Positions 42,339-63,982 of a stretch of DNA of 64,000 bases are shown one piece after another. This DNA is from Candidatus Zixiibacteriota bacterium (GTDB lineage Bacteria > RBG-13-66-14 > B26-G2 > WVWN01): positions 945 through 64,944 of the forward strand of contig JAUWLW010000011.1 in NCBI GenBank assembly GCA_030613505.1. Reading direction: 5' to 3'. The position numbers and the translations under genes were made by a program. Below the pieces are notes generated by a model that ran no database searches, was not told where the DNA came from, and worked only from the letters and a program-made list of their open reading frames with translations. Every line of letters begins with the position of its first letter. The first letter of the stretch is position 1.

Positions 42339-42451
42339 ATTCTACATCCCGTGGACGTCGTTAAATATCTTATTGTCTTATTATAGCTATTGAAAGCGGA
42401 AACGTAAAGCCCTTACGTAATCGTGGTAAATGGATTAGAATATTTAAACGC

Positions 42452-43150
42452 TTAAGGGCGGGCGGGCCCGAAAGGCCAAGGACAAGTATACCGGACATTA
42501 ACGTACCAATGGGGCGGGTCGCCCGGCAAGTCGGAAAATCCCTCCACGTCGTTGAGACCTATACTTTTTAAGACAGCTGGGTCCATCGGCGGGTCGAATT
42601 GGTTAGCGAAAAAAGTTTTAGCTTCCGGCCTAGTAACAACGTCAACGGCGCAACCGTTCCAATGGCCGAACGCGTCCCCGGCGTCCCGGACGCCGTAAGG
42701 GTCGTCTTCGGGGTAACCGTTAAGTATTGTCTTACCCAAGCGACGATAACCCGACGTTAGGTAGATAACCGGCTTCCTTTCGGCGCGTTGGCCTTTGGGG
42801 CGAGGGAATAACTTCTTGTGCTCCTCCCACGCTGCGTCGCGCCACTCGCGCAGCTTCTCGATTAACTCCGGACGCGCCAACATACATCGGTCGGCGTGGT
42901 CTGTCGTAGCGACGGTGGTCGGAATGGGAACTAGGATATTCTTCTCGATGTCGTCGACGACGGCCTGTAAATCCTCCCACGAACTTACGCCCGGTTGGTG
43001 CTTTTTAAAACTCGCAATCAAATCCCTTATCGCAGTCCGTTCTTCCGAGTCGTCGGAATACGCGTACGACGCCAACGTTCGGAAGCGGCACGAGTTCAAC
43101 CCCCGAACCAAGGAATATCGGGCCAAAGGTCCCATAGGATCGGTAGCCAT
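42452..43150 (-). CDS. peptidase M15-family zinc peptidase (duplicate)
   Basis: SGYRRLGK...FGHWNGCAVDVV...PPHWYV. Confidence 0.55.
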   Translation of the reverse strand: MATDPMGPLARYSLVRGLNSCRFRTLASYAYSDDSEERTAIRDLIASFKKHQPGVSSWEDLQAVVDDIEKNILVPIPTTVATTDHADRCMLARPELIEKLREWRDAAWEEHKKLFPRPKGQRAERKPVIYLTSGYRRLGKTILNGYPEDDPYGVRDAGDAFGHWNGCAVDVVTRPEAKTFFANQFDPPMDPAVLKSIGLNDVEGFSDLPGDPPHWYVNVRYTCPWPFGPARP

Positions 43151-44925: not shown

Positions 44926-46216
44926 AGTCTAAACCTCTGCTTTGGTATACCCGGCCGCCGTCGGCGGTCGGTAGGGCGCTCGAGCTCCCGCGCCCCAATC
45001 CCCAACAGGCCAGCGCCAGCGCGGTCACGGCGTCGTCGTGGTAGCCGGCCGGCGCGCCGTAGCGGACGCCCCCTCCCGGGAGCTGCTCGGCGGCGTAGAT
45101 CTCGAGCTCGCTCAGTAGCGCCGGCACGTCCGGGAAGCGAACGGTTCGCTCCGCCAGCGCCAGCGCCAGATTCTCCACCAGGCGGCGCTTGGTCTCGGCG
45201 GTGAACTTGTAGCCGCGCGCCGGGACGCCCAGCGACTTCAAGCGGTCGTAGACCGGGTCGCCTAGGCCGGTGCTGTCGAGCCACACCGTCGCGTCGTGGT
45301 AGCGGCTCGAGGCGCTGCGGACCTTCGCCACCTGGAACTCCCAGTCGAGCTGGTTGAAGCGCTCGAAGTGGACCAGCGCCCGGCTCGAGCGCTTGAGCAC
45401 GCACATCACGGTGAAGTCGGTCGTCTTGGCGAGGTCGCAGCCGACGACGTAGGTCTCGTCCGGCTGCGGCTCCTCCAGGTCGCCGGCGACGCACTCGCGG
45501 ATGTCGTGGAAGACGCCGCCCAGGTCGCCCAGGAACTCGGCCAGAATTTCCTGGCGGTAGACGTTCTCGGGTAGGCTGCGGGCCTCGGCGTCGATGCTGG
45601 CCGCGGGGAGGATGCCGTCGTAACTGGTGAAGTGGAAGCCGACGTAGCCCGGTTCCGCGGCGGCGGCTCGCGCCCACAGCTCGTGCGCCTGGTTGAGGCC
45701 CTTGGGCGTGAAGATGAAGAGGGCGGGCGCGTCGCGGGCCATAAGGGTAGGGCGGACGCACTCCTCCCAGGCGTAGCGGCTCCAGAGGCTGAACTCCTCG
45801 GCCACCAGGCCGGCGACGGAGAGCGGCCGGACAGCGTCCGGGTTGTCCATCGAGCGCAGGATTATTTTGGCGTCGTTGGCCAGCGTCAATACGTGCTCCG
45901 TCTTGTTGTAGGCGTCGCCCCAGCCGCCGCCCCGGAGGGCTTCGGCCGGGATGGCGCGGATCATTTCGGGGACGAGCTGGTCGCGCAGGTAAGCGTACTC
46001 GGGCGCGGCGACGAGAACGTACGCGCCGGGTTGGGCGTCGCAGGCCCAGTCGCGGGCGACGCGCACGGCGGCGAAGGTCTTGCCGAACTTGCGGCCGGCG
46101 CGCACGACGACGCGCCTGTGTTTATCGAGAACGCACGCGCGGTAGACGGCATATTGCTTAGGATTTCGCCTTAGCGTTGCGTCCCTTATTCTTATGCGAG
46201 TTTTCGGGAGGCACAA
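44912..46216 (-). CDS. terminase large subunit
   Basis: Walker A-like VRAGRKFGKT. Nuclease-region acidic motifs VGCDLAKTTDF and HDD. Confidence 0.75.
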   Translation of the reverse strand: MCLPKTRIRIRDATLRRNPKQYAVYRACVLDKHRRVVVRAGRKFGKTFAAVRVARDWACDAQPGAYVLVAAPEYAYLRDQLVPEMIRAIPAEALRGGGWGDAYNKTEHVLTLANDAKIILRSMDNPDAVRPLSVAGLVAEEFSLWSRYAWEECVRPTLMARDAPALFIFTPKGLNQAHELWARAAAAEPGYVGFHFTSYDGILPAASIDAEARSLPENVYRQEILAEFLGDLGGVFHDIRECVAGDLEEPQPDETYVVGCDLAKTTDFTVMCVLKRSSRALVHFERFNQLDWEFQVAKVRSASSRYHDATVWLDSTGLGDPVYDRLKSLGVPARGYKFTAETKRRLVENLALALAERTVRFPDVPALLSELEIYAAEQLPGGGVRYGAPAGYHDDAVTALALACWGLGRGSSSALPTADGGRVYQSRGLDYGAE

Positions 46217-46841: not shown

Positions 46842-47819
46842 TTATTGTTCGTCCCACTTTACCACCGGCTTGAAGTACTGGATCCGGCCGTTGCCCTGGT
46901 CGACGACGTAGACCCAGCCGTTGGGGCCGACGGCCAGGGCCGAAATCCAACCGAACCGGCCGGCCTTCGTGCCAGCCGCGCCCCACTGGCCCAGGTACGA
47001 ACCGCTCGAGGTGAAGTATTGAACGCGGTAGTTGCGGTCGTCGGCGACGAAGACGGTCCCGTCCGGGCCGACGGCGACGTCCGTGGGTTGTCGCAATTCG
47101 CCGGAGCCGGAACCGCCCACACCCCAAAAGCCAAGGTAGTCGCCGCGCGAGCCGTAATACTCGATAAAGTTATAGCCGTAGTCCGCGACGTACACCGCGC
47201 CGTACGGGCCTACGCCTATGCCGTATCCCGACGCGACCCAATGAGCGACCAAGAAACCGGCGGGAGTGAAGCAATCGATACTCACCGAGTGCGGCATCTT
47301 GAGCGGGGGCGGGCGCCTGTAACTGACGTAGATATTCCCGTCCGCGCCGGCCGCCACGTCTTCGAGAATCGGCGAACAGATACCGCGGACGCGGCCGTAA
47401 CGGGCGGGCCAATCCGTAACGTAAGAACGCTCGGCGTCGTAAACGACGATACGGACATCGTAAACGTCGGTTACGTAAACGGTCCCGTCCGACCCGGCGG
47501 CAACTCCGCGCGACGCGAACATCCCCGACTCGCTTTCGGGCGGGGGCGGTAACGTACCCAGGTACGAGCCCTCCGGCGTGAAATAGTACACGCCCGGAGC
47601 GGAGTCTTCAGTTACGTAAACCGTCCCGTCGGGCCCCACCGCAATACGAGTGGGCCGCATGAAAACCGGCGCCTCCTCGCCCTCGGCGGGCGCGAGGCCG
47701 CAGCGGTTCCACTCCCCCGCGTATTCGTACGCGACGGCGGCCTCCCCGGCCGTAGGGCCTACGCTCGCCACGACGACGAAGCACAGTGAAGCAACGAGCA
47801 AACAAACGTGCTTGTTCAT
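46842..47819 (-). CDS. secreted NHL-like beta-propeller protein (...YFKPVVKWDEQ)
   Basis: Start trimmed to MNKHVCLLVASLCFVVVASVG (signal peptide). Confidence 0.65.
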   Translation of the reverse strand: MNKHVCLLVASLCFVVVASVGPTAGEAAVAYEYAGEWNRCGLAPAEGEEAPVFMRPTRIAVGPDGTVYVTEDSAPGVYYFTPEGSYLGTLPPPPESESGMFASRGVAAGSDGTVYVTDVYDVRIVVYDAERSYVTDWPARYGRVRGICSPILEDVAAGADGNIYVSYRRPPPLKMPHSVSIDCFTPAGFLVAHWVASGYGIGVGPYGAVYVADYGYNFIEYYGSRGDYLGFWGVGGSGSGELRQPTDVAVGPDGTVFVADDRNYRVQYFTSSGSYLGQWGAAGTKAGRFGWISALAVGPNGWVYVVDQGNGRIQYFKPVVKWDEQ

Positions 47820-47834
47820 ATTATAAGCCCCCAT

Positions 47835-47856
47835 GGGGCGCAAAGCTTTGCGCCCC
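47835..47856. repeat. palindrome family member GGGGCGCAAAGCTTTGCGCCCC
   Basis: Perfect 22-bp palindrome abutting the cupin gene stop. Confidence 0.6.
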
Positions 47857-48194
47857 TACAGACGCCGATACCTGTCCGCCTCGTCGAAGATGTCCAACAG
47901 GCGGGAGCCCGCTTTAATGCGGGCGGTATGCGGGGCGCCGGCGGGAACGAAGTACGTATCGCCTCTCCGGTAAACGGCCTTCTCGCCGGCCATCGTCAGC
48001 TCGACCTCGCCGTCCAGGACGACGACCCACTGCGCCGCGTGCGACTCCTCGGGCGCGTCGACGTCGTCGTCGAACGCGACGAAGACCACCTGCTTACGCT
48101 CGCCCTGCAAGAGGTACGCACGCACGCGCTCGCCGGGGACGTCGGCCCGCGGCAGATTGGTTATGATTTCCGGAAAGAAGTCCTCTTGCACCAA
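47856..48194 (-). CDS. cupin-domain protein
   Basis: 112 aa. Conserved G(D)TY..P.G.PH. Confidence 0.65.
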   Translation of the reverse strand: MVQEDFFPEIITNLPRADVPGERVRAYLLQGERKQVVFVAFDDDVDAPEESHAAQWVVVLDGEVELTMAGEKAVYRRGDTYFVPAGAPHTARIKAGSRLLDIFDEADRYRRL

Positions 48195-48222: not shown

Positions 48223-48561
48223 CTACTTAGCGCGGTAGCGGTCCTCCTGGTCGAAGAGGTCCTGGAGGCTCGAGCCGCCTTTGATGCGCGCGCTGTGGGG
48301 GACGCCGGCGGCGATGGAGTACGTATCTCCTTTGTGGAAAGTATTCGTCTCGCCGCCGACGGTCAGCTCGATCTCGCCGTCCAGGACCGCGCCCCACTGC
48401 GCCGCGTGGTCGTGTTCGGGCACGTCGACGTCGTCGGCGAAGGTCATGAAGACGAGCTGCTTGCCGTCGCCCTGGAACAGGTACGCGCGTACGCCGGCGA
48501 GCGGAACGTCGGCCTGCGGCAACGTCGTAACGATATCCGGGAAGAAGTCCTCCTGGGGCAA
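48223..48561 (-). CDS. cupin-domain protein (tandem paralog)
   Basis: 112 aa, about 65% identical to 47856..48194. Confidence 0.65.
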   Translation of the reverse strand: MPQEDFFPDIVTTLPQADVPLAGVRAYLFQGDGKQLVFMTFADDVDVPEHDHAAQWGAVLDGEIELTVGGETNTFHKGDTYSIAAGVPHSARIKGGSSLQDLFDQEDRYRAK

Positions 48562-48622: not shown

Positions 48623-49573
48623 TTACCGGAACAGCGCCTTCACCTTCCCCAGCGACGTGGGGGAGATGGCGGGGTTTTCCCATTTGAAATATTGTACCCG
48701 GTGGTGAGAATCAGCTATGTAAACGCGCTTGCCACTTGTCGGGAAAGCCACGTCCTCAGGGAAAACGAATTCCCCGTAAAATAAACCCAGGAAAGAACCT
48801 GTGGGCGTGAAATATTGGATACGACTATGGCCCATATCGGCGACGTAAACGTCGCCTTGGGCCGTAACGGCAACGCCACGAGGCATTAAGAATTGCCCGG
48901 CGCCATGCCCGGGAGACCCCCACATACCGATAAAAGACCCGTTAGCCGTGAAGTATTGTACGCGTTCGTTATCGATGTCTACGACGTAAACGTTGCCGCT
49001 GGGGGCCACCGCCAAGCCCCACAGACGGTTAAATTCGGCGGGGCCGGAGCCGGGGCTGCCCCACTTACCGAGGTACGAACCGGCGGAGGTGAAGTATTGG
49101 ACGCGGTCATTACCCCAATCGGCGACGTAAACGTTACCGCTCGAGGCGACGGCCACGCCGACGGGGAGGACAAATTGGCCGTTACCGGGGCCCAACGAAC
49201 CCCATTTGCCTAAAAAAGAACCCTCCGACGTGAAGTACTGAACGCGGTTATTGAAACGGTCGGCGACGTAAACGTCGCCGTTGTCGGCTACGGCTATGTG
49301 CATGGTTATCGTAAATTCGCCGTCGGCCGTACCGAGGCTACCCCACATACCTAAAAACGAACCCGTAGGCGTGAAATATTGAATGCGATGGTTGCCGTGG
49401 TCGGTCACGTATACGTTACCGCTGGGGGCTACCGCCAACCCGTAAATGTGTATGAACTCCCCTTTCCCGGAACCGTACGAACCCCACTGGCCCTCGAACA
49501 CCCACTCGCCCCAGGCGCAAAAGGCCGCCAACGCATACAGCGCCGCGGCCGTCATTATCGTCAGCTTCCTCAT
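48623..49573 (-). CDS. secreted NHL-repeat protein with C-terminal tag ...NPAISPTSLGKVKALFR
   Basis: Signal peptide MRKLTIMTAAALYALAAFCAWG. NHL repeats. Tag. Confidence 0.85.
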   Translation of the reverse strand: MRKLTIMTAAALYALAAFCAWGEWVFEGQWGSYGSGKGEFIHIYGLAVAPSGNVYVTDHGNHRIQYFTPTGSFLGMWGSLGTADGEFTITMHIAVADNGDVYVADRFNNRVQYFTSEGSFLGKWGSLGPGNGQFVLPVGVAVASSGNVYVADWGNDRVQYFTSAGSYLGKWGSPGSGPAEFNRLWGLAVAPSGNVYVVDIDNERVQYFTANGSFIGMWGSPGHGAGQFLMPRGVAVTAQGDVYVADMGHSRIQYFTPTGSFLGLFYGEFVFPEDVAFPTSGKRVYIADSHHRVQYFKWENPAISPTSLGKVKALFR

Positions 49574-49640
49574 TTCCCTTTACCTCCTCAAGCTACTGTC
49601 CTCTTAGATTAACTATAACAGGAAATACCGGACAGCGCCA

Positions 49641-49672
49641 ACTAAAAAAAGGGCCGACCTTAGGGTCGACCC
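49641..49672 (-). terminator. rho-independent terminator (GGGCCGACC-UUAG-GGUCGACCC + U7)
   Basis: Hairpin followed by a U-run on the minus sense. Confidence 0.55.
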
Positions 49673-49696
49673 GTACGTATATGAGCAAAAGGGAGG

Positions 49697-50659
49697 TTAT
49701 CTAAACAGCGCCTTCACGCGGCCGAGGGAGGCCGGCTCCACCGCGGGGTCGGAGGGGCGGAAGTACTGGATGCGGTCGTTATGGGTATCGGCCACGTAAA
49801 TTCTATCGCCCGCGGCGTTGGAAGCGATGCCCTCCGGTTCGTCGAATTGGCCGCGGCCCGTGCCGTACGTACCCCACTTGCCCAGGAAGGAGCCCGTAGC
49901 GGTGAAGTATTGGACGCGGTCGTTTTTGTTGTCGGTCACGAAAACGTGGTTACCGGCCGAGACGGCCACGCCGTACGGGTCGTCGAACCGGCCGTTGGCC
50001 GTGCCGTGCGAACCCCATTTGCCGAGGAACGAGCCCGTCGCCGTGAAGCGCTGGACGCGGTTGTTGTCGCCGTCGGCGACGTAGACGTTGCCGTTGGCCG
50101 CCACCGCTACGCCGACGGGGCCGTCGAACCGGCCGTTGGCCGTGCCGTGCTCGCCCCACTTGCCCAGGTAGGAGCCGGCGGAGTTGAAGTATTGGACGCG
50201 GTCGTTACCCCAATCGGCGACGTAAACGTTACCGCTCGAGGCGACGGCCACGCCGACGGGGAGGTAAAATTGGCCATTGCCGGGGCCCAACGAGCCCCAC
50301 TTGCCGAGGAACGAGCCGGTCGGCGTAAAATACTGCACCCGTTCGTTCATCCGGTCCGTTACGTAAACGTTGCCGTTCGGGCCCAGGGCTATGCCGGCGG
50401 GGAATTGGAACTGGCCGTCGCCGGAACCCGACGAGCCCCACTTCCCGTTGAAGGAACCGGTCGGGGTGAAATATTGGATCCGGTGGTTCCACTCGTCGGC
50501 TACGTAAACGTTGCCGCCCGGCGCCACGGCGACGCCGTCGGGCTGGTTGAACCGACCGTTGCCCGTTCCGGGCAATCCCCACTTGCCCGCGTAGACCCAG
50601 TCCGTGGCGGCGGCGGCCGCCGCGAGCGCCGCGGCCGTGATTATCGCGAGTTTCCTAAT
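49697..50659 (-). CDS. secreted NHL-repeat protein with tag ...DPAVEPASLGRVKALFR; canonical ATG replaced by ATT
   Basis: In-frame upstream extension IRKLAIITAAALAAAAAATDWVYAGKWG matches the signal peptides of paralogs. SD GGAGGT is intact. A TAA lies 2 codons upstream. The ORF track starts at TTG (50575). Confidence 0.55.
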   Translation of the reverse strand: MRKLAIITAAALAAAAAATDWVYAGKWGLPGTGNGRFNQPDGVAVAPGGNVYVADEWNHRIQYFTPTGSFNGKWGSSGSGDGQFQFPAGIALGPNGNVYVTDRMNERVQYFTPTGSFLGKWGSLGPGNGQFYLPVGVAVASSGNVYVADWGNDRVQYFNSAGSYLGKWGEHGTANGRFDGPVGVAVAANGNVYVADGDNNRVQRFTATGSFLGKWGSHGTANGRFDDPYGVAVSAGNHVFVTDNKNDRVQYFTATGSFLGKWGTYGTGRGQFDEPEGIASNAAGDRIYVADTHNDRIQYFRPSDPAVEPASLGRVKALFR

Positions 50660-50740
50660 TACCTGTTACCTCCTCGAGCTACCGCCCTCTGCGCATAAAT
50701 ATAATATAAAAACCTCGACGGCCACAAATAAAAACGGGCC

Positions 50741-50768
50741 GACCTTAAGGCCGGCGCGTACGTATATC
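50741..50768 (-). terminator. rho-independent terminator (GCCGGCC-UUAA-GGUCGGC + U5)
   Basis: Same terminator family as 49641 and 55062. Confidence 0.5.
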
Positions 50769-50826
50769 GCGGGGACAAGGGGCCGTTAACCGGCGGTTTT
50801 AACCGCCGGGTTGCCCCCTGTCCGAG

Positions 50827-50846
50827 CGGCCTTAGGGGCGCACAGC
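50827..50846. repeat. palindrome family member GGGCGCACAGCCGTGCGCCC
   Basis: Perfect 8+4+8 palindrome. Confidence 0.55.
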
Positions 50847-50902
50847 CGTGCGCCCTTACAAAAACTTTCCGCGTTTTCCGGTAACAACCGGCGCCACAGC
50901 GG

Positions 50903-50947
50903 TTACCGGAACAGCGCCCGGATACGGCCCGGCGAGGCGGCGACCCG
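50903..50947 (-). other. orphan, degenerate tag-coding remnant (...VAASPGRIRALFR*), out of frame with 50976..51986
   Basis: Reverse translation in the +1 frame relative to the NHL gene gives the tag. The NHL gene instead ends ...CGGCGGVLY*. Confidence 0.55.
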
Positions 50948-50975
50948 AATATAAACGCGCGTGAAGGCCACGCCC

Positions 50976-51986
50976 TCAGTATAGCACGCCGCCGCAGCCT
51001 CCGCACCCGTCGCGCGGCGTCCCGCCGCAAACAGGCGGCACCGGGATGGCGAAAAACTGGACCCGGTGGTTGCCGGAATCGACTACGTAAAGCAGTCCCT
51101 CGTACCGGGAGGCCGCGAGGCCGCGGGGGTGGTTGAACTCGCCGTCCCCGGCTCCCCGCCGGCCCCACGCGCCGACGAAATCGCCCGCGGAAGTGAACTC
51201 TTGAACCCGGCCGTTGCCCTTGTCGGCAACCAGTACGCCGTACCCGTCGCCCGTAACCGCTACCCCCTCCGGGAACCGAAACTCGCCGTGGGCCGAACCC
51301 TCCGAACCCCACGACGCAACGAAAGAACCGGCGGCGGTAAAACTCAGGACGCGGTGGCGTCCCCCGGCGCCGCCACCCTCGGTTACGTAAACCAGGTCGT
51401 CGCGCGGCGAGAGGGCGATGCCCAACGGGTAACCGAGGCGACCTTCGCCCTCGCCGGACCATTTTCCCAGGAAAACGCCGTCCGGGCCGAAACGTTGGAC
51501 GCGGCGGTTGAGAGTATCGACGACGTAGATCTCGCCGGAGAGGGGGTGGACGGCTACGCCGGTCGGGTACCGGAACTGGCCGTCGCCCTTCCCCTCCGAC
51601 CCGATCTGACCCAGAAACGAACCGGTGGAGGTGAAAATTTGGAGGCGGTGGTTGTACTTATCGGTGACGTACGTCGTCCCGTCCCAGGCCACGGCGACGC
51701 CGTGCGGCTCGCGGAACTGGCCGGGGCCGCCGCCCTCCGACCCCCACTTGCCGAGGAAGGAACCGCGCGAGGTGAAGTACTGGATCCGGTGGTTCAAGGT
51801 GTCGGCCACGTATACGTAGTGACGGTAAACGGCCACGCCGACGGGCGACAGGAATTGGCCGTCGCCCTTCCCCTCCGAACCCCACTGCCCCTTGTATTCG
51901 TAACGTCCGGGATCGCCGCGGGGCGTCGTCACCGTCGCGAGGACGAAAAGCAACGCCGCAGCAACTAAACGCCATAATGTTTTCAT
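50976..51986 (-). CDS. secreted NHL-repeat protein whose C-terminus has lost the tag (possible frameshifted or degraded end)
   Basis: Signal peptide MKTLWRLVAAALLFVLATVTTP. NHL repeats. Atypical Cys/Gly-rich C-terminus. A tag remnant lies 30-75 nt downstream. Confidence 0.65.
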   Translation of the reverse strand: MKTLWRLVAAALLFVLATVTTPRGDPGRYEYKGQWGSEGKGDGQFLSPVGVAVYRHYVYVADTLNHRIQYFTSRGSFLGKWGSEGGGPGQFREPHGVAVAWDGTTYVTDKYNHRLQIFTSTGSFLGQIGSEGKGDGQFRYPTGVAVHPLSGEIYVVDTLNRRVQRFGPDGVFLGKWSGEGEGRLGYPLGIALSPRDDLVYVTEGGGAGGRHRVLSFTAAGSFVASWGSEGSAHGEFRFPEGVAVTGDGYGVLVADKGNGRVQEFTSAGDFVGAWGRRGAGDGEFNHPRGLAASRYEGLLYVVDSGNHRVQFFAIPVPPVCGGTPRDGCGGCGGVLY

Positions 51987-51997
51987 CTTAACCCTCC

Positions 51998-52036
51998 TAC
52001 CGGGACAGCGCCCTCACGCGGCCCAGCGGAGGTACC
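51998..52036 (-). other. orphan tag-coding remnant (GKVPPLGRVRALSR*) between the T9SS-CTD gene and the next NHL gene
   Basis: +1 frame relative to the upstream gene. It ends at a TAG that directly abuts the SD of 50976..51986. Confidence 0.5.
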
Positions 52037-53975
52037 TTACCGTACCACCACCATACGCTTCGCCGCGGCCTCGCCGCCCGCCTCCAGCCGGTAAGTGTAG
52101 ACGCCCGGCGCGAGGTAAGACACGTCAAGCTTGAGCTTATTCGCGCCCGCGTCTGCCGACACGGCGCGGGAGGCGACCTTCCGCCCGGCCAGGTCGTAGA
52201 GCGCGAGCATGGCGTCGCAAGCCCCGGGGACCGAGAACGCGATCGTCGTGGCCGCTCGAGCCGGGTTGGGGACGTTCTGCGCCAGCGCGAAGGACGCTTT
52301 GCCGGCGCCGCCGGCGGTACAGTAAACCGGCCCGTAGGTCTCTTTGCCGCCGCTCAGGTCGACGGCCTCGAGCCAGAACTTATATTCCACGCCGCGGCCT
52401 ACTTCCCGGTCGAGGAAGTTATAAGGGGATTTGCCCGTGACGAGCGAAGCGTTGAGCCTGGCCTTAGCGTCGTCGCCCCCCGCGGAGGCGCGGTAGAGGT
52501 TGAAGCCGGCGCGGTTCCACTCGCCGGCGGTGGCCCAGCGGAGCAGGACGGCCTCGCCCTCGGCACGGGCGCCGAAGTAGTCCAGCTTGATGCCGATTCC
52601 CAAATCGGTATCGTAGCAGCAGGTATGGCGGCGGTCGTGGTTGTGCATGGGCCAGACCCGCGAGTCGGGGTCGCCGCCCAGGCGGAAAGCCTCGACGTAA
52701 CCGCCACCCCAATTAGAGGAGACGGTTACCATCTCAAGCGCGCCGTCGCGGTCAATATCCCATACGACCACCGAATTGCCGCTCGCGTCTCCCCTGGTCA
52801 CCACCGGGAAACCGGCCAGGGGAGAGCCGTCGTGGTTAAAACCTACAATATCGCCCCAATCTCCGTTCCCTACGATCTCGAAACGCCCGTCGCCGTCGAC
52901 GTCCGCCACCGCGGCGTTGCCTACGTCGCTTGCGCTGGAAACCGGAAAGCCGGGTATGGTGGTGCCGTCGTAATTCCACACGTAGACGTGGCCGCGCGAG
53001 TCATATTCGCGCGCTACGATTTCCAGATAGCCGTCGTTATCGATATCGGCCGCCGAGGCCGAAGCCCATATGCGTTTCACTTTTTTAGGCCACCCCGGCA
53101 AAACCTTGCCGTTTCCGCCCAGAAGGTAAAAATAACTCTGGCGCGGGTCCCACGACGGGGAAGCCGGCCCGGTCCCGAAAGCTATTTCCAAATCGCCGTC
53201 GTTGTCCCAATCCGCCAGCGTCGGCGCCGCGCCCGCCATGTACGTTTTCGCGTCGTGGAACAGGTACGGGAAGCCGCTCACGGCCGTACCGTCGGCGTTC
53301 CAGGCGAAAAGGGCGTGCCTACCCGCCCGGGTTTTACTCGAGAGGAGTATCTCCGGCTTGCGGTCGCCGTCTATGTCGCCTACCGCGAATCCGCTATAGG
53401 GCAAGCCGTATAGATTTTTGGGCCACCCGGGAAACCGCTTGCCGGCGCCGTCGTACACGCGGACCTTGCCGACGGGGTAGTTTCTCTCGGCGGCTATTAT
53501 CTCGCACGCGCCGTCGGCGTCCAGGTCCTCCAACGCTACCGTGCCGGATACGCGAATTTCATCTTTCGGAAACCCGCTCACGGCCTTGCCGTCGTGATGC
53601 CAGGCGTAAAGAGCGCCGCGGTCGCGGGCATACCAACCCCTGGCGCCGATTACGACTTCGAGGTCGCCGTCGCCATCTATATCGCCGACGGCCGGCGAGG
53701 ACGTGAAGTAATAACCGGACCGGTGGACCTGGGTCGGGAAGCCGGGGAATTCGGTCCCGTTGGGCCGCCAGACGTGACATTTCCCGTCGGCGGCGGCGAC
53801 CACTACGTCGTCCTTTCCGTTGCTATCGAGGTCGGCGACGACGGCCCCGTCGAGCGGCCGCAAAGAACCGGCTACGCCTATTGCTCTCTCCCAGAGCTTC
53901 ACCGGCCCTACGCCCCAAACGCCGAGGGGCGCGCACGCCGCGGCGCCGACGAAGCATAGAATTATCTTTCGCATG
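52037..53975 (-). CDS. FG-GAP/VCBS-repeat protein with T9SS type-A (FlgD Ig-like) C-terminal sorting domain
   Basis: Start trimmed to MRKIILCFVGAAACAPLGVWG. Many DxDGDG FG-GAP motifs. C-terminus LAQNVPNPARAATTIAFSVP...LYDLAGRKVA...GVYTYRLEAGG...KRMVVVR matches TIGR04183. Confidence 0.75.
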
Positions 53976-54030
53976 TCCCTACCCCTTTCCTCCTCGCCCC
54001 GGGACGCGGTCGCCGAGGCGGTATAAGCAA

Positions 54031-54050
54031 GGGCGCAAGGCCTTGCGCCC
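54031..54050. repeat. palindrome family member GGGCGCAAGGCCTTGCGCCC
   Basis: Perfect 20-bp palindrome abutting the stop of 54051..54992. Confidence 0.55.
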
Positions 54051-54992
54051 CTACCGGAACAACGCCCGCAGCCGTCCCAGCGACGTGGGCGCGACGGCGG
54101 GGTTAGCGTATTCGAAATATACGACCCTATGTCCACCATAGTCCGCCACGTAGACGCGACCTCCGTCCGGCGTCACCCGGACGCCGGTGGCCGAGAACCG
54201 GCAGAAAAAATTGAGGTAAGAACCGGAGGAGGTGTAGATATATATGCGTCGGTACCCCAACAGGCAGACGAACACGGTACCGTCCGTTCCCACGTCGATG
54301 CCCGTGGGGCCACTCATAAAGCCGGTGCCCCACTTGCCGAGGAAGGAGCCCGCGGCGGTGAAGTATTGCACGCGGTCGTTTTCGTACTCGGTGACGTAGA
54401 CGGTGCCGCCGCCGCTAAAGGCGATTTGGTCGGGCGTATTGAATTGGCCGTCGCCGGTACCGTACGAGCCCCACTTGCCGAGAAAGGACCCGGCGGCGGT
54501 GAAGTATTGGACGCGATGGTTTAGGCTGTCGGCTACGTAGACGTACCCGTTCGGCCCGCGCCGTACGCCGAACGGCTCGTTGAATTGGCCGTCACCCGAA
54601 CCCAACGCGCCCCATTTTCCCAGGAACGAACCCGTCGAGGTGAAGTATTGGACGCGGTGGTTGCCTATCTCGGAGACGTAGGCCGTGCCGTCGGCGGCGA
54701 CGTATATGCAGACCGGCTTGTCGAATTCGCCGTTGCCCGTGCCCCGCGAGCCCCATTTGCCGAGAAAGGACCCGGCGGCGGTGAAGTATTGGACGCGGTG
54801 GTTATGGGTGTCGGCGACGTAGACGTTACCGTTGGGCGCCAACGCCAAGCCGTACGGTATGTAAAACTGGCCGTCGCCCGACCCCTCGGAACCCCATCCG
54901 CCGGCCTTGACGTATCGGGGGGGCGAGGCCCAAACGCAAACGGCCGCCAGCGCGCCGAGCGCCGCGGCCGTAGTTATCGCGAGTTTCCTCAT
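54051..54992 (-). CDS. secreted NHL-repeat protein with tag ...NPAVAPTSLGRLRALFR
   Basis: MRKLAITTAAALGALAAVCVWA signal peptide. Confidence 0.85.
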   Translation of the reverse strand: MRKLAITTAAALGALAAVCVWASPPRYVKAGGWGSEGSGDGQFYIPYGLALAPNGNVYVADTHNHRVQYFTAAGSFLGKWGSRGTGNGEFDKPVCIYVAADGTAYVSEIGNHRVQYFTSTGSFLGKWGALGSGDGQFNEPFGVRRGPNGYVYVADSLNHRVQYFTAAGSFLGKWGSYGTGDGQFNTPDQIAFSGGGTVYVTEYENDRVQYFTAAGSFLGKWGTGFMSGPTGIDVGTDGTVFVCLLGYRRIYIYTSSGSYLNFFCRFSATGVRVTPDGGRVYVADYGGHRVVYFEYANPAVAPTSLGRLRALFR

Positions 54993-55061
54993 TTCCCTTT
55001 ACCTCCTCAAGCTACTGTCCTCTGGAAATAAATATAACATAAAAACCTCGACAGTTACGAA

Positions 55062-55090
55062 TAAAAATGCGCCGACCTGAAGGTCGGCCC
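55062..55090 (-). terminator. rho-independent terminator (GCCGACC-UUCA-GGUCGGC + U-run)
   Basis: Downstream of 55143..56243. Confidence 0.5.
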
Positions 55091-55142
55091 CTACAATTCC
55101 AGTTTAGCGGGGGCGGTTGAGGTCAACGGCGAGCTCCCCCGG

Positions 55143-56243
55143 TCATTTCAACTCGCCCTCGACCCTCTTGATATACCGCTTAACCTTCGCGTTCCCGGGG
55201 TCGTAGATCAGCGCCCGGCGCCAGGCCTTGAGCGCCGCCGTAAGCTTGCCGCGGGAATATAGGTCGAGGCCGTGGAGGAGGTAGGCGTCGACCAATTTAC
55301 CGCGGGCCGCGCCGTAGGTGGGATGCTCCCCCACGACGGCGCCGAGGATGCGTATGGCGCCGCCGATGTCGCCGCCGGAGAGAGCGGCCTTCCCCCGCCC
55401 GTAGGCTTCGACGGCCTCCGGCGGGATGGTACGTTTTACAACCTCCGGCTCCGGCTCGGGCCTGGGCACCGGCCTCGGCCTGGGCGCGGGCGCGCGAAGG
55501 CTCTCGGCGAGCAGGCGCTCCGACTCCTGCAGCAGCTCGTCCGCCTCGGCGTGGCCCGGGTACGCGGCGAGCACCTCTTTACTTATTTTTATGGCTTCGT
55601 GGTAATCGCCCCGGCCGTTGGCCTCCCCGACTTCGGCGAGTTTTTCCGCGACGGCCTCCTCCTCGGCGATGAGGGCCAACCTCTCTTCCTCGAGGCGCCT
55701 TGCCTCGGCGATGCGGGCCTGTCTCTCTTTCTCGAGCCGTCGAACGCGCCCCGTGCTGAAGCGCACGCCCACCTCGACCTTGAAACCGGTATCCGCTTCT
55801 TCGCCGACAAAGAAGAGGACGCCCGCATCCACGTACGGCGACAGCGACACCCGGGGAATGTCGAAGTCGCAGCCGGCGGCGAAGTTGACATACGCGCCGG
55901 TCTTTGCCTCGTTTATTTTTGTATCGTCCTCGTCTAAGGCGTGGGCGGCGCCCAGGCCGAACGCCAGATGGGGCTGGAAGACGTCGTGAAGGCTGGGGAT
56001 AACGTAAAACCTCGCCGCGGCGCCGCCGTAGAACGCGCGGCCGCCGCCGAAGCCCAGCGCGAACTCCGGCCCGATGCAGACGTACGGCGAGAGCATGAAG
56101 TTGCGCTCGCCGCCGACGTAGCCGTCGGCGAGGCCGCCGGCGCCCAGGCCGAAGGTCAAGCCGGAAAGGCCGTGTGGCAAAGCAATCGCGGCCGATGTGG
56201 CCGCGAGCGTCAAAACCGCCGCAATCGTCGCCGTTTTTTTCAT
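55143..56243 (-). CDS. outer-membrane beta-barrel-like N-domain + coiled coil + Pro-rich linker + TPR-like C-domain protein
   Basis: Signal peptide. Gly/aromatic-rich N-terminal 170 aa. PRPRPVPRPEPEPE linker. Helical C-terminus. Confidence 0.55.
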   Translation of the reverse strand: MKKTATIAAVLTLAATSAAIALPHGLSGLTFGLGAGGLADGYVGGERNFMLSPYVCIGPEFALGFGGGRAFYGGAAARFYVIPSLHDVFQPHLAFGLGAAHALDEDDTKINEAKTGAYVNFAAGCDFDIPRVSLSPYVDAGVLFFVGEEADTGFKVEVGVRFSTGRVRRLEKERQARIAEARRLEEERLALIAEEEAVAEKLAEVGEANGRGDYHEAIKISKEVLAAYPGHAEADELLQESERLLAESLRAPAPRPRPVPRPEPEPEVVKRTIPPEAVEAYGRGKAALSGGDIGGAIRILGAVVGEHPTYGAARGKLVDAYLLHGLDLYSRGKLTAALKAWRRALIYDPGNAKVKRYIKRVEGELK

Positions 56244-56321
56244 ATCCCTACACGCCTGCGCCCCTCCGGCGCCTTAGCTTACATTATAACACAACGCCGG
56301 CGGCGAAGCAAATCGCGTAAA

Positions 56322-56366
56322 AGGAAAGGCCGCCCCGGCGGGCGGCCCTTCAAGGACAAGGGGCTA
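56322..56366 (-). terminator. two tandem GC hairpins (GGCCGCCCCGGCGGGCGGCC; AGGGGCTAAAGCCCCT) downstream of 56377..56964
   Basis: Minus-sense U-rich tail after the first hairpin. Confidence 0.4.
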
Positions 56367-56376
56367 AAGCCCCTCC

Positions 56377-56964
56377 TTAACGAAATACCGCCCGGACGCG
56401 GCCCAGCGAGGTTGGGGAGACGGCGGGTTCGCCGGCGTCAACGACGACGTTGTCCAAGTCCCAGGCGTAAACGGCTACGTGCTGCGGGTGCCGGTTCTGG
56501 ACCCACACCTCGAAGCGGGCCTTCACCAGGCCCTCGTGCGTCGCGACCGCCGTACCCCTAAATACCCGCCACGTGGACGTCAACGGTATCCGGTGCGAGG
56601 CGAAAACCTCTTCCGGCTGGGTCGCGTAGAGCAACGAGAAGGTCGCCCGGTTCTCCGCCTCGAAGCCGCCGTGGCCGTACTTGTAGTCGAAACGAAACGC
56701 CAGCTCGGTTTTGGCGGGCACGGCGAAGGAGTAGGTATCCATCTTGGCCCACCGCTCGGCGCTCGCGGAGCTGGACGCCCACCCCACGGCGAACTTCCCC
56801 CACGGCCCGCCGGCTTCCGCGTCCCAGCCGGCCCCCGCGCCGCTCTTGCTCGACGTCCACCGGGGCGGCGGAACGCTTTGCTCAAACTTTTCGTCGACGT
56901 AGGTCGCGGCGTCCGCAAAGCCGGCCGCCGCCAACGCAGCTACTACTATAAGCCATAACTTCAC
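56377..56964 (-). CDS. secreted non-NHL protein (fold B) with tag ...EPAVSPTSLGRVRAVFR
   Basis: GTG start at 56964 with a perfect SD GGAGGTG 6 nt upstream. Signal peptide MKLWLIVVAALAAAGFADA. Confidence 0.6.
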   Translation of the reverse strand: MKLWLIVVAALAAAGFADAATYVDEKFEQSVPPPRWTSSKSGAGAGWDAEAGGPWGKFAVGWASSSASAERWAKMDTYSFAVPAKTELAFRFDYKYGHGGFEAENRATFSLLYATQPEEVFASHRIPLTSTWRVFRGTAVATHEGLVKARFEVWVQNRHPQHVAVYAWDLDNVVVDAGEPAVSPTSLGRVRAVFR

Positions 56965-57253
56965 GTTGGTCACCTCCGTGAGGCGATATCTCGCGCGAAG
57001 GCCGTCGGCGCCTTGCCGCCGGCCGAAAGGCATACGCCGAAAAACAACGCCAGGTCGGCCGTTTGGCCTACCTGGGCACTGTTCGCTTCCGCGCGGCTCT
57101 TGCCGCGACGTACCGGCGTTACGCCCGATTCCGTTTCCCCCGACATATCTTAGCCACCTTGACAAGCCAATATAAAATAATTCGTTGAATTAGTCAATTA
57201 AAAAGTGTCCCAATCATCAAACGGCGTTACGCCGCGCCCGCCCCTTCCGAATG

Positions 57254-57275
57254 GGGGCGTACAGCTGTACGCCCC
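57254..57275. repeat. palindrome family member GGGGCGTACAGCTGTACGCCCC
   Basis: Perfect 22-bp palindrome overlapping the stop codon by 1 nt. Upstream arm CGCCCC (57241-57246) can alternatively pair with it. Confidence 0.6.
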
Positions 57276-58240
57276 TACTTAAATATCGCCTTTACCCGGC
57301 CGAGGGAGGTGGGGGTAACGCGCGCCACGTTCCGGTTGAAGTACTGGACGCGGCAGTTGCCCGAGTCTCCGACGTACGCCCGGGCGCCTGATCCCGAAAC
57401 GGCAACGTGCGCCGGCTGTTCGAATTGACCTTCCCCGGCCCCCCTCGAGCCCCATTTGCCGAGGAAGGACCCGCTCGAGGTGAAGTATTGCACGCGGTGT
57501 AAGTCAATGTCCGTCACGAAGAAGTCGCCGTTAGGCGCGGCGGCGATGCCCCACGGCGCTAAGAACTCGCCGTCCCCGCGGCCCTCGCGGCCTACAACGC
57601 CGAGTAACGAACCCGCGGCGGTGAAGCACTGCACGCGAGAGTTCAGCGTATCCGCTACGTACACGCGGCCGTTGGGGCCGACGGCTACGCCGCAAGGCAT
57701 CACGAACTGCCCCGCCGCCGAGCCGTAGTACCCCCATTTGCCGAGAAACGAACCGGCGGGCGTGAAATATTGTATACGATGGTTCAAGGAATCCGCTACG
57801 TAGACGTTCCCGTTCCCCGCAACGGCGACATCTTCGGGGAGGAAAAGTTGACCGTCGCCGGAACCGAACGTGCCCCACTGGCCCAAGTACGAGCCGGCGG
57901 CGGTAAAGTACTGGATACGGTCATTACCCTCGTCCGCGACGTACACGCGGCCGCCACCGGCAACTGCCATGCCGGTGGGTTGTTCGAATTGGCCGTTACC
58001 AGAGCCGAACGAACCCCAACGCCCCAAGAACGAACCGGACGCGGTGAAGTATTGCACGCAATCGTTTGCGTGGTCAGATACGTAAACGTTACCCGTGGGC
58101 CCGACCGCAACGCCGCGAGTTGAGTTAAACTGGCCGTTCCCCGAACCGCGACTGCCCCATTGGCCCTCGTACGTCCAAGCGCCCCAGGCCGCGGCGGCCA
58201 CGAGCGCCGCCGCCGTCAAAACAACTAAAACCCTCTTCAC
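57275..58240 (-). CDS. secreted NHL-repeat protein with tag ...VTPTSLGRVKAIFK
   Basis: MKRVLVVLTAAALVAAAAWGA signal peptide. Confidence 0.85.
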   Translation of the reverse strand: MKRVLVVLTAAALVAAAAWGAWTYEGQWGSRGSGNGQFNSTRGVAVGPTGNVYVSDHANDCVQYFTASGSFLGRWGSFGSGNGQFEQPTGMAVAGGGRVYVADEGNDRIQYFTAAGSYLGQWGTFGSGDGQLFLPEDVAVAGNGNVYVADSLNHRIQYFTPAGSFLGKWGYYGSAAGQFVMPCGVAVGPNGRVYVADTLNSRVQCFTAAGSLLGVVGREGRGDGEFLAPWGIAAAPNGDFFVTDIDLHRVQYFTSSGSFLGKWGSRGAGEGQFEQPAHVAVSGSGARAYVGDSGNCRVQYFNRNVARVTPTSLGRVKAIFK

Positions 58241-58251
58241 CTCTTAACCTC

Positions 58252-59181
58252 CTACTTAAACAACGCCTTCACGCGGCCCAGCGAGGCCGGAACTACGGCC
58301 GTGGCCGTATCGTCGAAGTATTGGACGCGGCAGCCGTAGTAATCGGTGGCGTACGCGCGCACACCCGAGGGCGAAACGGCCACGTCATGGAGGAGGGTGA
58401 ATAGGCCGACACCTTCGCCGGGCCCGCCGAATATGCCGAGCCAGGAGCCGGTAGCGCTGAAGTAATCGACGCAGTGATTGTACGTATTGGCGACGAACAC
58501 TATCCCCGACCTCGAGACGTCGAGTCCGCGCGGGTCGTCGAATTCGCCGGGCCCCTCGCCCCATTTACCCCACGCACCCAGGAACGAGCCGGTAGGCGTG
58601 AAGTATTGGACGCGGCTGTTGCCGTTGTCGACTACGTAGACGGTACCGTTCAAGGCGACGGCGATACCGTCCGGGTTATAAAATTGGCCGGGGCCCGAAC
58701 CTTCGGAACCCCACGAACCGAGCAACGAGCCGGTGGGGGTATAATACGACACGCCGGGAAGCCAGAATTCGCTCACGTATACGTTGCCGTCGGGCGCCAC
58801 GGCCACGTCCATCGGGGAGGCGAGACAGCCCCAGGAACCGACGAACGAGCCCGTCGAGGTGTAGTAACGAACGACGCTGCCCTGGGAATCGATTACGTAG
58901 ACGACGCCGCGGCGCGAGACGTCGATGCCGCCGCCGCCGGGGTTATTCCATTGGCCGAGGTACGAGCCGGCGGAGGTGAAGCACTGAACCCTTTTCGTCC
59001 CCGAGTCGATTACGTAGACGTTGCCGTTGGGCGCGGTAGCCAAGGCGTAGGGGCCGGCGAACTCCCCCGGCCCGGACCCGTACTTACCCCACGTGCCCGC
59101 GTACTGGTACGTGGGAGCCGCGACCGAGGCCGCGGCGGCCGCGAGCGCGACTGCAGTTAAAACAACTAAACCCGTCTTCAT
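58252..59181 (-). CDS. secreted NHL-repeat protein with tag ...VVPASLGRVKALFK
   Basis: MKTGLVVLTAVALAAAAASVAAP signal peptide. Confidence 0.85.
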   Translation of the reverse strand: MKTGLVVLTAVALAAAAASVAAPTYQYAGTWGKYGSGPGEFAGPYALATAPNGNVYVIDSGTKRVQCFTSAGSYLGQWNNPGGGGIDVSRRGVVYVIDSQGSVVRYYTSTGSFVGSWGCLASPMDVAVAPDGNVYVSEFWLPGVSYYTPTGSLLGSWGSEGSGPGQFYNPDGIAVALNGTVYVVDNGNSRVQYFTPTGSFLGAWGKWGEGPGEFDDPRGLDVSRSGIVFVANTYNHCVDYFSATGSWLGIFGGPGEGVGLFTLLHDVAVSPSGVRAYATDYYGCRVQYFDDTATAVVPASLGRVKALFK

Positions 59182-59533: not shown

Positions 59534-59555
59534 GGGGCGTACAGCTGTACGCCCC
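59534..59555. repeat. palindrome family member GGGGCGTACAGCTGTACGCCCC
   Basis: Identical to the copies at 57254 and 63961. Confidence 0.6.
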
Positions 59556-61949: not shown

Positions 61950-63134
61950 TCACTCAGAAAAAAGGATTTCGAAAATCGGATCGGCGATAAAAGCCTTCGG
62001 ATATTTAATTTCCCCTAACTGACTTAAGATACCCAATTCGACTAATCTATTTACGCAATCCCTCGCAACGCTATATTTAACGCTTAATATTACCGCCGCT
62101 GATTTATAAGTAATAACCGGATTTCCTATTAAAGCTTCTGCTAGCTCAACGTCAGAAGCCGATGCCCTGGGGCGCTTTATCAGCTCGCGCCAATCCTTCC
62201 TAAGTGCGTCCAAAGCGTTAATACGCCTTCCAACGTCCGCAGCTTGGGTTCTAATAGCTTCCAGGAAAAAAAGTATCCATTCGCGCCACGCACCTTTGGT
62301 ACTAACTTCAAACATCAAATCACAGTAGGCCTCTTTATTATTTTCAAAGTAACGGCTCAGGTGTAGTAACGGGGTGGGTAAAAGGCCCCAATAAACTAAT
62401 AAAAATATAACTAACAACCTGCCTATCCGGCCGTTCCCGTCCCGGAACGGATGGATCGTTTCGAATTGGTAGTGGATAAACGCAAGCCTTACCAACTTTG
62501 GATAATTGTCATTCGCGTGTAGGTATTTCTCAAACGCGTCCAGGCAATTTTCAATTTCCGGCGGTGGCGGCGGTATAAAAACGGCTTCTTGAACCGTCCC
62601 GCGTCCTCTTACGCCTACCTGGAGGCGCCGGAACTGACCTAACTCTGCTTCCCCTCCACGCACCCCGGTCATTAGTATTTTGTGCAATTCGCGTATTAAC
62701 CTTAAACTCAAAGGAGTTTTCGTTTGGTCCAAAGCATACTCAATCGCGGCGACGTAATTAAATACTTCCTTTAAGGCGGCAGCCCGGGGGTCGGTTTCAA
62801 ACCCCGGTAGTTTAAGTTGCCCAGCTTCGTACGCGTACAGGTCTTTAATATCGACGACGGTACCCTCAATGATCGATCCTAGGCGCGCCTCCCGGCGAAT
62901 AAAAGGCCGAACGAATAGGTTAGCATTCTCGACTTTTCTACCCAGGCCGTCCAACGCGCCCAAAGCGAGCGAAGCCTCCTCGACCGCGCCAGTTAAATCG
63001 CTCAAATCTATGCGAGGCGGAAGAGGCTTAGGTATAAACGCCCAATCGCCTCCGTATTTCGTCGAAATCGGGACGAGTTTACCGGGGGCGTCTTCCGTAA
63101 AAAGGCCAGCGTCCATCGAACACGATAATATCAA
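61950..63134 (-). CDS. Fic-family protein (AMPylation motif HPFRDGNGRIGR)
   Basis: 394 aa with FIHYQFETIHPFRDGNGRIGRLL. A degenerate inhibitory-helix-like GSIIEG. C-terminal wHTH-like region. GC roughly 45% versus roughly 68% in the flanks. Confidence 0.85.
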   Translation of the reverse strand: MILSCSMDAGLFTEDAPGKLVPISTKYGGDWAFIPKPLPPRIDLSDLTGAVEEASLALGALDGLGRKVENANLFVRPFIRREARLGSIIEGTVVDIKDLYAYEAGQLKLPGFETDPRAAALKEVFNYVAAIEYALDQTKTPLSLRLIRELHKILMTGVRGGEAELGQFRRLQVGVRGRGTVQEAVFIPPPPPEIENCLDAFEKYLHANDNYPKLVRLAFIHYQFETIHPFRDGNGRIGRLLVIFLLVYWGLLPTPLLHLSRYFENNKEAYCDLMFEVSTKGAWREWILFFLEAIRTQAADVGRRINALDALRKDWRELIKRPRASASDVELAEALIGNPVITYKSAAVILSVKYSVARDCVNRLVELGILSQLGEIKYPKAFIADPIFEILFSE

Positions 63135-63841: not shown

Positions 63842-63863
63842 GGGGCGCACAGCGGTGCGCCCC
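63842..63863. repeat. palindrome family member GGGGCGCACAGCGGTGCGCCCC (in the 5' UTR of 63168..63803)
   Basis: Perfect 9+4+9 palindrome, 40 nt upstream of the ATG. Confidence 0.55.
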
Positions 63864-63960: not shown

Positions 63961-63982
63961 GGGCGTACAGCTGTACGCCCCT
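63961..63982. repeat. palindrome family member GGGGCGTACAGCTGTACGCCCC
   Basis: Third identical copy. Confidence 0.6.

Follow-up and report, generated by a model that had tools for sequence, protein, structure and literature searches.

We analyzed a 64,000-nucleotide (nt) stretch of DNA from a genome assembly labelled Candidatus Zixiibacteriota bacterium (GCA_030613505.1, contig JAUWLW010000011.1, positions 945 to 64,944 of the forward strand; hereafter the window), in which a short conserved peptide, here called the tail, forms the extreme C-terminus of a series of exported proteins. A previous reading of the letters alone (the sequence-only reading) had described this peptide and compared its behaviour with that of a sorting, recognition or degradation signal. 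Using a six-frame translation and the pattern P-x-S-L-G-[RK]-[VL]-[KR]-A-[LIV]-[FY]-[RK] ending at a stop codon, we identified nine complete stop-terminated tails. One more tail is cut by the window end, and a hidden Markov model (HMM) built from 283 tails picked up two decayed relics. All are listed below, with the bit scores given by this model to tails and relics.

10020-10844, plus strand: tailed gene with signal peptide, 5-bladed-propeller-like family; tail 10794-10844 (16 codons and stop), 27.8 bits
22009-22776, plus strand: tailed gene with Sec signal peptide, 5-bladed beta-propeller (glutaminyl-cyclase-like); tail 22726-22776, 32.2 bits
48623-49573, minus strand: tailed NHL propeller (Pfam NHL, 126 bits); tail 48623-48673, 32.1 bits
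49697-50655, minus strand: tailed NHL propeller; tail 49697-49747, 37.4 bits
50903-50929, minus strand: out-of-frame relic of a decayed tail (VAASPGRIRALFR-stop) behind the NHL gene 50976-51986, which has no tail; 10.9 bits
51997-52035, minus strand: relic of a decayed tail (VPPLGRVRALSR-stop) that comes immediately after the stop codon of an FG-GAP gene with a type IX secretion system (T9SS) C-terminal domain (CTD); 7.8 bits
54051-54992, minus strand: tailed NHL propeller; tail 54051-54101, 30.3 bits
56377-56964, minus strand: tailed jelly-roll protein (CBM/MAM/cleaved-adhesin-like) with signal peptide; tail 56377-56427
57275-58240, minus strand: tailed NHL propeller; tail 57275-57325, 30.1 bits
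58252-59181, minus strand: tailed NHL propeller; tail 58252-58302, 32.9 bits
59555-59605, minus strand: orphan tail, 16 perfect codons plus stop and terminator hairpins, without a gene body; 38.0 bits
63982-64000, minus strand: KALFR-stop, the end of a tailed gene whose body lies beyond the window

A degenerate back-translated DNA pattern matched nine times in the window and never in 100 dinucleotide-preserving shuffles, and the HMM scored the nine copies at 27.8-38 bits, as compared with 11 bits or less for the next real-frame matches. A chance origin of these tails is therefore ruled out. The shared peptide of the sequence-only reading proved to be real, with a stronger outcome than had been reported; the orphan tail, which is found 24 nt past the stop codon of an unrelated gene for a membrane protein, had not been listed there.

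All eight complete carriers (the proteins that end in the tail) in the window begin with a Sec-type signal peptide. Five of them contain NHL repeats (PF01436) well above the gathering score (81-164 bits, cut-off 20), in agreement with what had been claimed for these five. The protein 10020-10844 was assigned by alignment to the family of 22009-22776, whose AlphaFold2 (AF2) model has an overall predicted local distance difference test (pLDDT) score of 86.8 but a tail below 50, and Foldseek retrieved glutaminyl cyclases first and NHL proteins next. The protein 56377-56964 had no family match; its model is a jelly-roll sandwich with pLDDT above 90 for residues 21-177 and an unpacked tail at about 55, and resembles CBM4/22, MAM and gingipain cleaved-adhesin domains according to Foldseek. 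Thus, the statement that three unrelated folds carry the peptide does not stand for the window, where two of the three are beta-propellers and only two fold classes are left, although such fold diversity is present in the wider census described below (about 15 unrelated families).

Occurrence of the tail in other genomes

The logo of 283 non-redundant tails gives the consensus [P/T/V]-A-V-x-P-[A/T]-S-L-G-[R/K]-V-K-A-L-[F/Y]-[R/K]-COOH, with a conserved region of 15-16 residues. Counting from the C-terminus, Pro at position -12 (281/283), Ser at -10 (282/283), Gly at -8 (283/283) and Ala at -4 (275/283) are nearly invariant, Lys at -5 is found in 266 tails, and the terminus is Arg, Lys or Gln after Phe or Tyr (position -1 is Arg in 196 tails and Lys in 62).

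We scanned one genome per GTDB species with the degenerate DNA pattern, and at least 99 stretches matched. Among the matches listed, the hosts are about a dozen metagenome-assembled genomes (MAGs), including two complete "Candidatus Coatesbacteria" chromosomes, two Zixiibacteriota-labelled MAGs, one Gemmatimonadota-labelled MAG and several others. The corresponding loci, which are designated by L-numbers (such as L003), encode at least 144 open reading frames (ORFs) ending in the tail, ranging from at least 4 to at least 25 per MAG. Altogether, at least 280 non-redundant proteins outside the window have the tail at their end; they belong to 10 or more species-level MAGs, and in the chromosome CP070633.1 the tails are spread over its whole length. 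In these data, the tail is restricted to one uncultured lineage (Candidatus Coatesbacteria and its relatives).

We also searched 1.84 billion representative proteins with a tail profile of 20 columns, which yielded 187 matches at E <= 1e-3. Of the 150 top-ranking matches, 141 terminate precisely at the final residue; the remaining nine are artefacts of repeats or low complexity. In 825 kb of the loci plus the window, a stop directly follows the peptide-pattern match in 150 of 150 cases; this set was partly chosen by a pattern that includes the stop, whereas the profile search was free of such a requirement. The two results bear out the claim that the peptide is strictly C-terminal. Likewise, as had been noticed, no hydrophobic stretch or transmembrane (TM) helix lies beyond the tail, since the stop codon follows at once. 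A 40-aa version of the tail profile retrieved only 19 short protein fragments, and the full-length jelly-roll carrier retrieved only orthologues at E <= 10 (56-98% identity), without tail-only or differently anchored distant homologues.

In addition, we found a variant tail, P-T-S-F-G-x-I-K-A-x-[F/Y]-R-stop, which again ends unrelated carriers, including proteins of 520-534 amino acids. This F-form is present in the second Coatesbacteria genome, the Gemmatimonadota-labelled MAG (GC content 0.74) and nine JGI metagenome contigs (L078:1023-1049, L079:5763-5789 and L106-L114). The tail family is therefore wider than its L-form, and this signal family may reach beyond one phylum.

Carrier proteins and selection on the peptide

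To characterize the carriers, we removed the tails and clustered the remaining sequences by BLAST single linkage, by which 207 proteins fell into 15 clusters. Pfam searches of 86 carriers assigned 29 to NHL, three to PD40, two to an Omp28-like family and one to CBM96; most had no family, and a T9SS CTD or another anchor was found in none of the 86. A Sec signal peptide was recognized by a crude test in at least 159 of 194 full-length carriers, which upholds the earlier view that the carriers are secreted (the signal-peptide check was one that the sequence-only reading had proposed); most of those that failed are truncated or have non-ATG starts. Only three carriers have a lipobox-like sequence. 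The mature size is 160-490 aa, with a median of 279. These data show that the carriers are Sec-exported, non-lipoprotein, mostly small single-domain proteins. They also show that the tail is independent of the carrier fold, and AF2 leaves it unpacked and of low confidence on both modelled carriers.

Codon choice varies freely among the tail copies of the window. For the NHL paralogues of the window, pooled synonymous differences (pS) are 0.60 in the tail and 0.61 in the bodies, both saturated, whereas pooled nonsynonymous differences (pN) are 0.22 in the tail versus 0.33 in the bodies. In the alignment of the jelly-roll family, the bodies are only 23-39% identical and the tail is nearly invariant. 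These comparisons show that selection acts on the tail peptide and not on its DNA, with strong purifying selection on 15 consecutive residues. The sequence-only reading had seen mainly synonymous differences among the copies, taken them as a sign of purifying selection on the peptide, and suggested the codon comparison made here; on both points the data agree with it.

Gene turnover at tail-coding 3' ends

Besides the orphan tail of the window, orphan tails of 15-38 codons were detected about 90-130 nt behind complete tailed genes at L038, L073, L019, L084 and L096. Relic tails occur directly after the stop of an FG-GAP/T9SS-CTD gene in three genomes: in the window, at L074 (:4926) and at L045 (:3153). 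The L074 relic still contains an intact LGRVKALFR-stop, although out of frame. The gene in front of the window relic is as follows.

52037-53974, minus strand: FG-GAP repeat protein with a T9SS type A CTD (TIGR04183, 33.4 bits, cut-off 23; PF18962, 34.3 bits)

The protein is thus a bona fide T9SS CTD protein within the array, as had been stated, and its presence shows that T9SS-type signals are, by prediction, also in use by this organism. At this locus, a T9SS CTD now stands where a tail once ended the gene.

A 20-nt palindrome, GGGCGTACAGCTGTACGCCC, directly follows the stop of three tails (exact copies at 57255-57274, 59535-59554 and 63961-63980) and is found with three mismatches at 50836-50855 and 63843-63862; zero copies are expected by chance. 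Behind it come another GC-rich hairpin and a run of T, so that it may be part of a common terminator unit which moves together with the 3' end encoding the tail; between most tail copies the downstream hairpins differ. From the orphan and relic tails, it follows that the tail-coding 3' ends and their terminators are recombination scars, and together they indicate that recombination or gene turnover has been frequent there.

Comparison with known C-terminal signals

Searches of Pfam and NCBIfam 20.0 at permissive thresholds gave no match to the tail, while the T9SS CTD of the window, used as positive control, was found at 33-34 bits. None of the eight carriers in the window was matched by TIGR04183 or PF18962, with E limits of 1 for NCBIfam and 0.1 for Pfam. 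The tail motif strings had no match in the literature searched, and the titles and abstract openings of the Coatesbacteria papers retrieved contained nothing on protein sorting. Within these databases and this literature, the tail is an undescribed C-terminal tag, as the sequence-only reading had suspected.

The tripartite signals, namely PEP-CTERM (exosortase), LPXTG (sortase), GlyGly-CTERM (rhombosortase) and MYXO-CTERM, resemble the tail in being lineage-restricted multi-copy C-terminal tags on unrelated secreted families. The start of the tail, V-x-P-[A/T]-S-L, faintly recalls the PEP-[S/T]-x-L of PEP-CTERM, which is found on NHL homologues elsewhere (the best NCBIfam match was ScyF, below its cut-off). 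The tail differs from all of them by the lack of a TM helix and of a basic cluster after it. A tripartite sortase-type signal is out, considering the stop directly after the motif in 150 of 150 cases and the lack of an NCBIfam match. The C-terminal beta-signal of outer membrane proteins (OMPs) is out as well: the tail ends in Arg, Lys or Gln after Phe or Tyr, and the modelled carriers are soluble propellers and jelly rolls. The OMP-like proteins of the window (19320-20913) end in the canonical Phe or Trp, unlike the tail.

Two systems, PTS1 (SKL-COOH) read by the TPR protein PEX5 and the OMP beta-signal read by BamD, are similar only in the way they work, that is, by a short free C-terminal peptide and, for the tail, a candidate TPR reader; compartment, sequence and machinery are different. 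Encapsulin cargo-loading peptides and dockerins also are conserved terminal sequences joined by a linker to unrelated cargo, and the tail might likewise dock to a common scaffold. However, encapsulin cargo is cytoplasmic and has no signal peptides, and a dockerin is a folded module of about 70 aa.

Candidate machinery near tailed genes

An all-against-all BLAST of 2,179 ORFs in 100 loci revealed no dominant partner of the tailed genes. The candidate that we consider below is a family of 586-aa proteins with an N-terminal beta-barrel and a C-terminal TPR module (barrel-TPR proteins), to which one gene of the window and a small upstream gene elsewhere are linked:

55143-56243, minus strand (window): candidate receptor that starts with a signal peptide and a small beta-rich domain (about 165 aa), followed by a coiled coil and, at the C-terminus, a TPR module
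L101:9579-9971, L102:9610-9990, L104:6252-6650 and L105:9564-9968, also in L003 and L004: small protein consisting of a CTD only, upstream of the barrel-TPR gene

In the window, 55143-56243 follows the jelly-roll carrier 56377-56964, and over its final 158 aa it shares 49-57% identity with the C-terminal part of barrel-TPR proteins. It shares only this TPR end with the family, and it adjoins a tailed gene of a different family. The N-terminal 300 aa of the barrel-TPR proteins align with the PorV/PorQ model (NF033709) over positions 11-325/326 (E = 7e-14 and 2e-17). The family is narrow: 54 clusters, all with at least 48% identity, one of them from Coatesbacteria CP070633.1. A PDB sequence search with the barrel-TPR protein retrieved only generic designed TPRs. 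TPR modules are known to read C-terminal peptides elsewhere, such as in PEX5 and BamD.

In seven contexts, the barrel-TPR gene is always accompanied by a small upstream gene that encodes a signal peptide and a T9SS-CTD/FlgD_ig domain only, with the conserved sequence ...DYDFxFHTYPNPF...VAVARR; it recalls PorA, a CTD-only T9SS cargo of P. gingivalis (PMC7712824). In five of these contexts (L003, L004, L101, L104 and L105), the next gene upstream encodes a tailed NHL protein. PorV is the T9SS shuttle that binds CTDs (PMC5562754), and, according to PMC12618676, the genes of PorP/SprF-type shuttles frequently lie next to those of their type B cargo. The adjacency between barrel-TPR and tailed genes is suggestive, and the PorV-like barrel-TPR protein is the best, although weak, receptor candidate.

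Other neighbours were observed at few loci. A second family of TPR proteins, with heterogeneous members, is represented close to tails at six loci. In two MAGs, a gingipain-like C25 peptidase gene (L093:811-3225, minus strand, and L010:2308-4713, plus strand) is located directly upstream of a tailed 5-bladed-propeller gene and overlaps or abuts its start. The peptidase is secreted, has a C25 propeptide and a CarboxypepD_reg-like end, and lacks a CTD or tail; its identification as PorU was rejected, as NCBIfam does not call it PorU. At one locus, an esterase-PDZ protein (L061:2640-4232) adjoins a tailed gene.

Other genes in the window

Several additional features of the window were recorded. 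The start codon of 49697-50655 (50653-50655) is ATT where the paralogues carry ATG, and GGAGG precedes it by 9 nt, so that either ATT serves as a rare start here or the gene has recently been inactivated. Two tandem 112-aa paralogues with a cupin-like sequence (47856-48194 and 48223-48561) come right after the first tailed NHL gene. A homologue of Fic-family protein adenylyltransferases (61950-63134, E = 5e-45, below the equivalog cut-off) is located between the array of tailed genes and the next tailed gene. The adjacent paralogues 19320-20087 and 20104-20913 have a signal peptide and a zinc-ribbon-like CxxC...CxxC motif, and their C-terminal region resembles a small OMP barrel ending in Phe or Trp; they had no family match. 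A prophage-like region covers 22871-46547, with a Mu-type portal (43627-44925) and a large terminase (44912-46216), and also 10867-17399, which contains large family-less proteins resembling phage tail or baseplate genes. A prophage block of about 3.6 kb, covering paralogous ORFs of 310, 232 and 155 aa, is duplicated with 86-88% identity (37787-39066 and 41398-42676). The tail-less NHL protein 46842-47843 marks the edge of the prophage-like region.

Possible function of the tail

Taking all these observations together, we are inclined, with a modest degree of confidence, to the view that the tail is a sorting or anchoring signal which is recognized in trans by a separate protein through its free C-terminus. 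According to this proposal, Sec would first export the carriers to the periplasm, a step supported by their signal peptides. A flexible, Pro-containing linker would then present the tail with a free carboxyl end, which is supported by the fact that the tail always forms the last residues and that AF2 does not pack it on the fold. Finally, an envelope receptor would read the tail and either transfer the protein onto the outer membrane or through it, or dock it there. The receptor might be the lineage-restricted outer-membrane beta-barrel with its periplasmic TPR module, the barrel being PorV/PorQ-like in most genomes. By analogy, the system could be an offshoot of type IX secretion logic in which a TPR captures a C-terminal peptide as PEX5 does with PTS1 or BamD with the beta-signal. 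The swap between a T9SS signal and a tail at one locus, to which the relics behind T9SS-CTD genes in three genomes point, is a finding in favour of the proposal. Its most specific version, a new outer-membrane targeting or secretion route of Coatesbacteria-like bacteria in which a PorV-derived barrel-TPR protein and a stand-alone CTD protein would capture the tail and export or surface-dock small folded proteins, seems doubtful to us at present.

On the other hand, several observations weigh against recognition by such a receptor. For a classical ligand of a TPR or PDZ domain, a conserved stretch of 15 residues is long. No family dominates among 61 operon-adjacent neighbours in a Pfam census. 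The PorV/PorQ matches reach only 52 and 64 bits, below the NCBIfam cut-off of 90, and the distant, higher-GC barrel-TPR loci L102 and L103 have no tail within 21 kb. Moreover, the barrel-TPR genes adjoin tailed genes in only six related genomes, and this could be inherited gene order.

One different explanation is that the tail is itself an ultra-short T9SS signal, a CTD cut down to a P-[T/A]-S cleavage-like site and a motif-E-like strand (Lys, three hydrophobic residues and Arg/Lys-COOH), which would use the ordinary translocon, the PorV shuttle and the PorU sortase without a dedicated receptor. The tail and the T9SS type A CTD share many properties. Both lie at the extreme C-terminus of Sec-exported proteins behind a flexible linker, are carried by many unrelated passengers in multiple copies per genome and end in a basic residue after a hydrophobic run, and the host of the tail has genuine T9SS cargo as well as PorV-like barrels. 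The CTDs of this lineage end in KRMVVVR, FVAVARR or VVIVKR, the same basic-hydrophobic-basic order as in KALFR, and relic tails lie behind CTD genes. CTDs can also shrink: the shortest documented T9SS signals are three-strand CTDs of 43-55 aa with motifs B, D and E that work in Prevotella intermedia (PMC11969387), and work cited in that paper describes the last 22 residues of Hbp35 as absolutely required.

However, the features shared with T9SS cargo (a Sec signal peptide and a basic residue in the last strand, motif E) are weak and non-specific, and the tail does not have a CTD fold of at least three strands and at least about 43 aa; AF2 models it without a sheet and with pLDDT below 56. Sixteen residues, a third of the length of the shortest CTD, cannot build its three-strand sheet, so the remark in the sequence-only reading that the tail is far too short for a T9SS CTD was justified. 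In addition, TIGR04183 and PF18962 match no tail, the motifs B (G..Y) and D (GxY), which are PorV contacts in published models, are absent from it, and its nearly invariant consensus is far more rigid than that of the loosely conserved CTDs. The carriers are also small, with a mature median of about 280 aa and a maximum of 490. Hence, we regard an ultra-short T9SS signal as rather improbable.

There is a smaller chance that the tail needs no receptor and is a cationic amphipathic peptide sticking to a membrane leaflet or lipopolysaccharide, like the C-terminal helices of PBP5 and MinD. Its three basic residues are interleaved with Leu, Val, Leu and Phe, and AF2 draws a helix at residues 185-193 of 56377-56964 and 250-253 of 22009-22776, although with low confidence (pLDDT below 56). 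For the hydrophobic moment of such a helix we obtained 0.45, which 43% of shuffles match or beat, and the amphipathic-helix idea was rejected on account of this unremarkable value; the strand-type moment is higher (0.72-0.76). Furthermore, nearly invariant Pro, Ser, Gly and Ala residues and an exact end point would not be expected for a physico-chemical anchor.

The chance is slimmer still that the tail is a processing or degradation signal, read by a periplasmic PDZ-containing protease of the S41/HtrA type or by a C25 protease cutting after Arg or Lys. PDZ proteases do read free C-terminal peptides, and the C25 peptidases and the esterase-PDZ protein mentioned above would fit such a role, but they are neighbours at only two and one of about 100 loci, respectively. 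It would also be hard to explain why dozens of well-conserved secreted proteins in each genome should carry a constitutive degron, and the terminal residues of known Prc/Tsp signals are non-polar instead of Arg or Lys. Among the roles offered by the sequence-only reading, sorting or recognition is favoured over degradation, while processing keeps a small probability.

Recent duplication, gene conversion or a translated DNA element such as a terminator-linked repeat could account for the many tandem NHL paralogues among the carriers, the 20-nt palindrome that three copies share immediately behind the stop and the 3'-end recombination seen in orphan and relic tails, but is refuted by a saturated pS of 0.60 with codon usage that differs among copies, by hairpins that differ between most copies and by a motif that is always in frame and ends at the stop; confinement to recent duplicates, named by the sequence-only reading as the result that would speak against it, was not observed, as the tail ends about 15 unrelated families and occurs in no fewer than 10 species-level MAGs. 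A structural role within the beta-propeller, such as that of a closing "Velcro" strand, is suggested by the predominance of propellers among the carriers and a loose likeness to the NHL strand SFLGKWG, and is also refuted: the tail ends jelly-roll, PD40, Omp28-like and many unclassified proteins, AF2 leaves it unpacked in a propeller, and, as we read the repeat register, the N-terminal NHL strand WVYEGQWG is the equivalent of the repeat outer strand and hence the likely closing strand.

Implications

Recognition of the tail in trans, as a sorting or anchoring signal, is therefore the explanation that we carry forward. The tail is unlike the known classes of C-terminal sorting signals in length and architecture, and yet it has the hallmarks of a sorting signal. 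In the case of LPXTG, PEP-CTERM and T9SS CTDs, each signal opened the way to a machine for secretion or anchoring and to practical tools for the prediction of surface proteomes. Here, the tag marks a sizeable exported set, with ten examples in the 64-kb window, in a candidate phylum without cultured members and with almost no literature, and it gives an immediate listing of the putative surface or secreted proteins of this lineage. Specific candidate partners make envelope addressing in these organisms testable, and the tail is short enough for a direct trial as a portable 16-residue tag. If the most specific version of the proposal, the doubtful one, is true, the tail and its receptor would be a bacterial counterpart of PTS1 and PEX5 grafted onto type IX secretion, and the tail would be the shortest outer-membrane sorting signal known.

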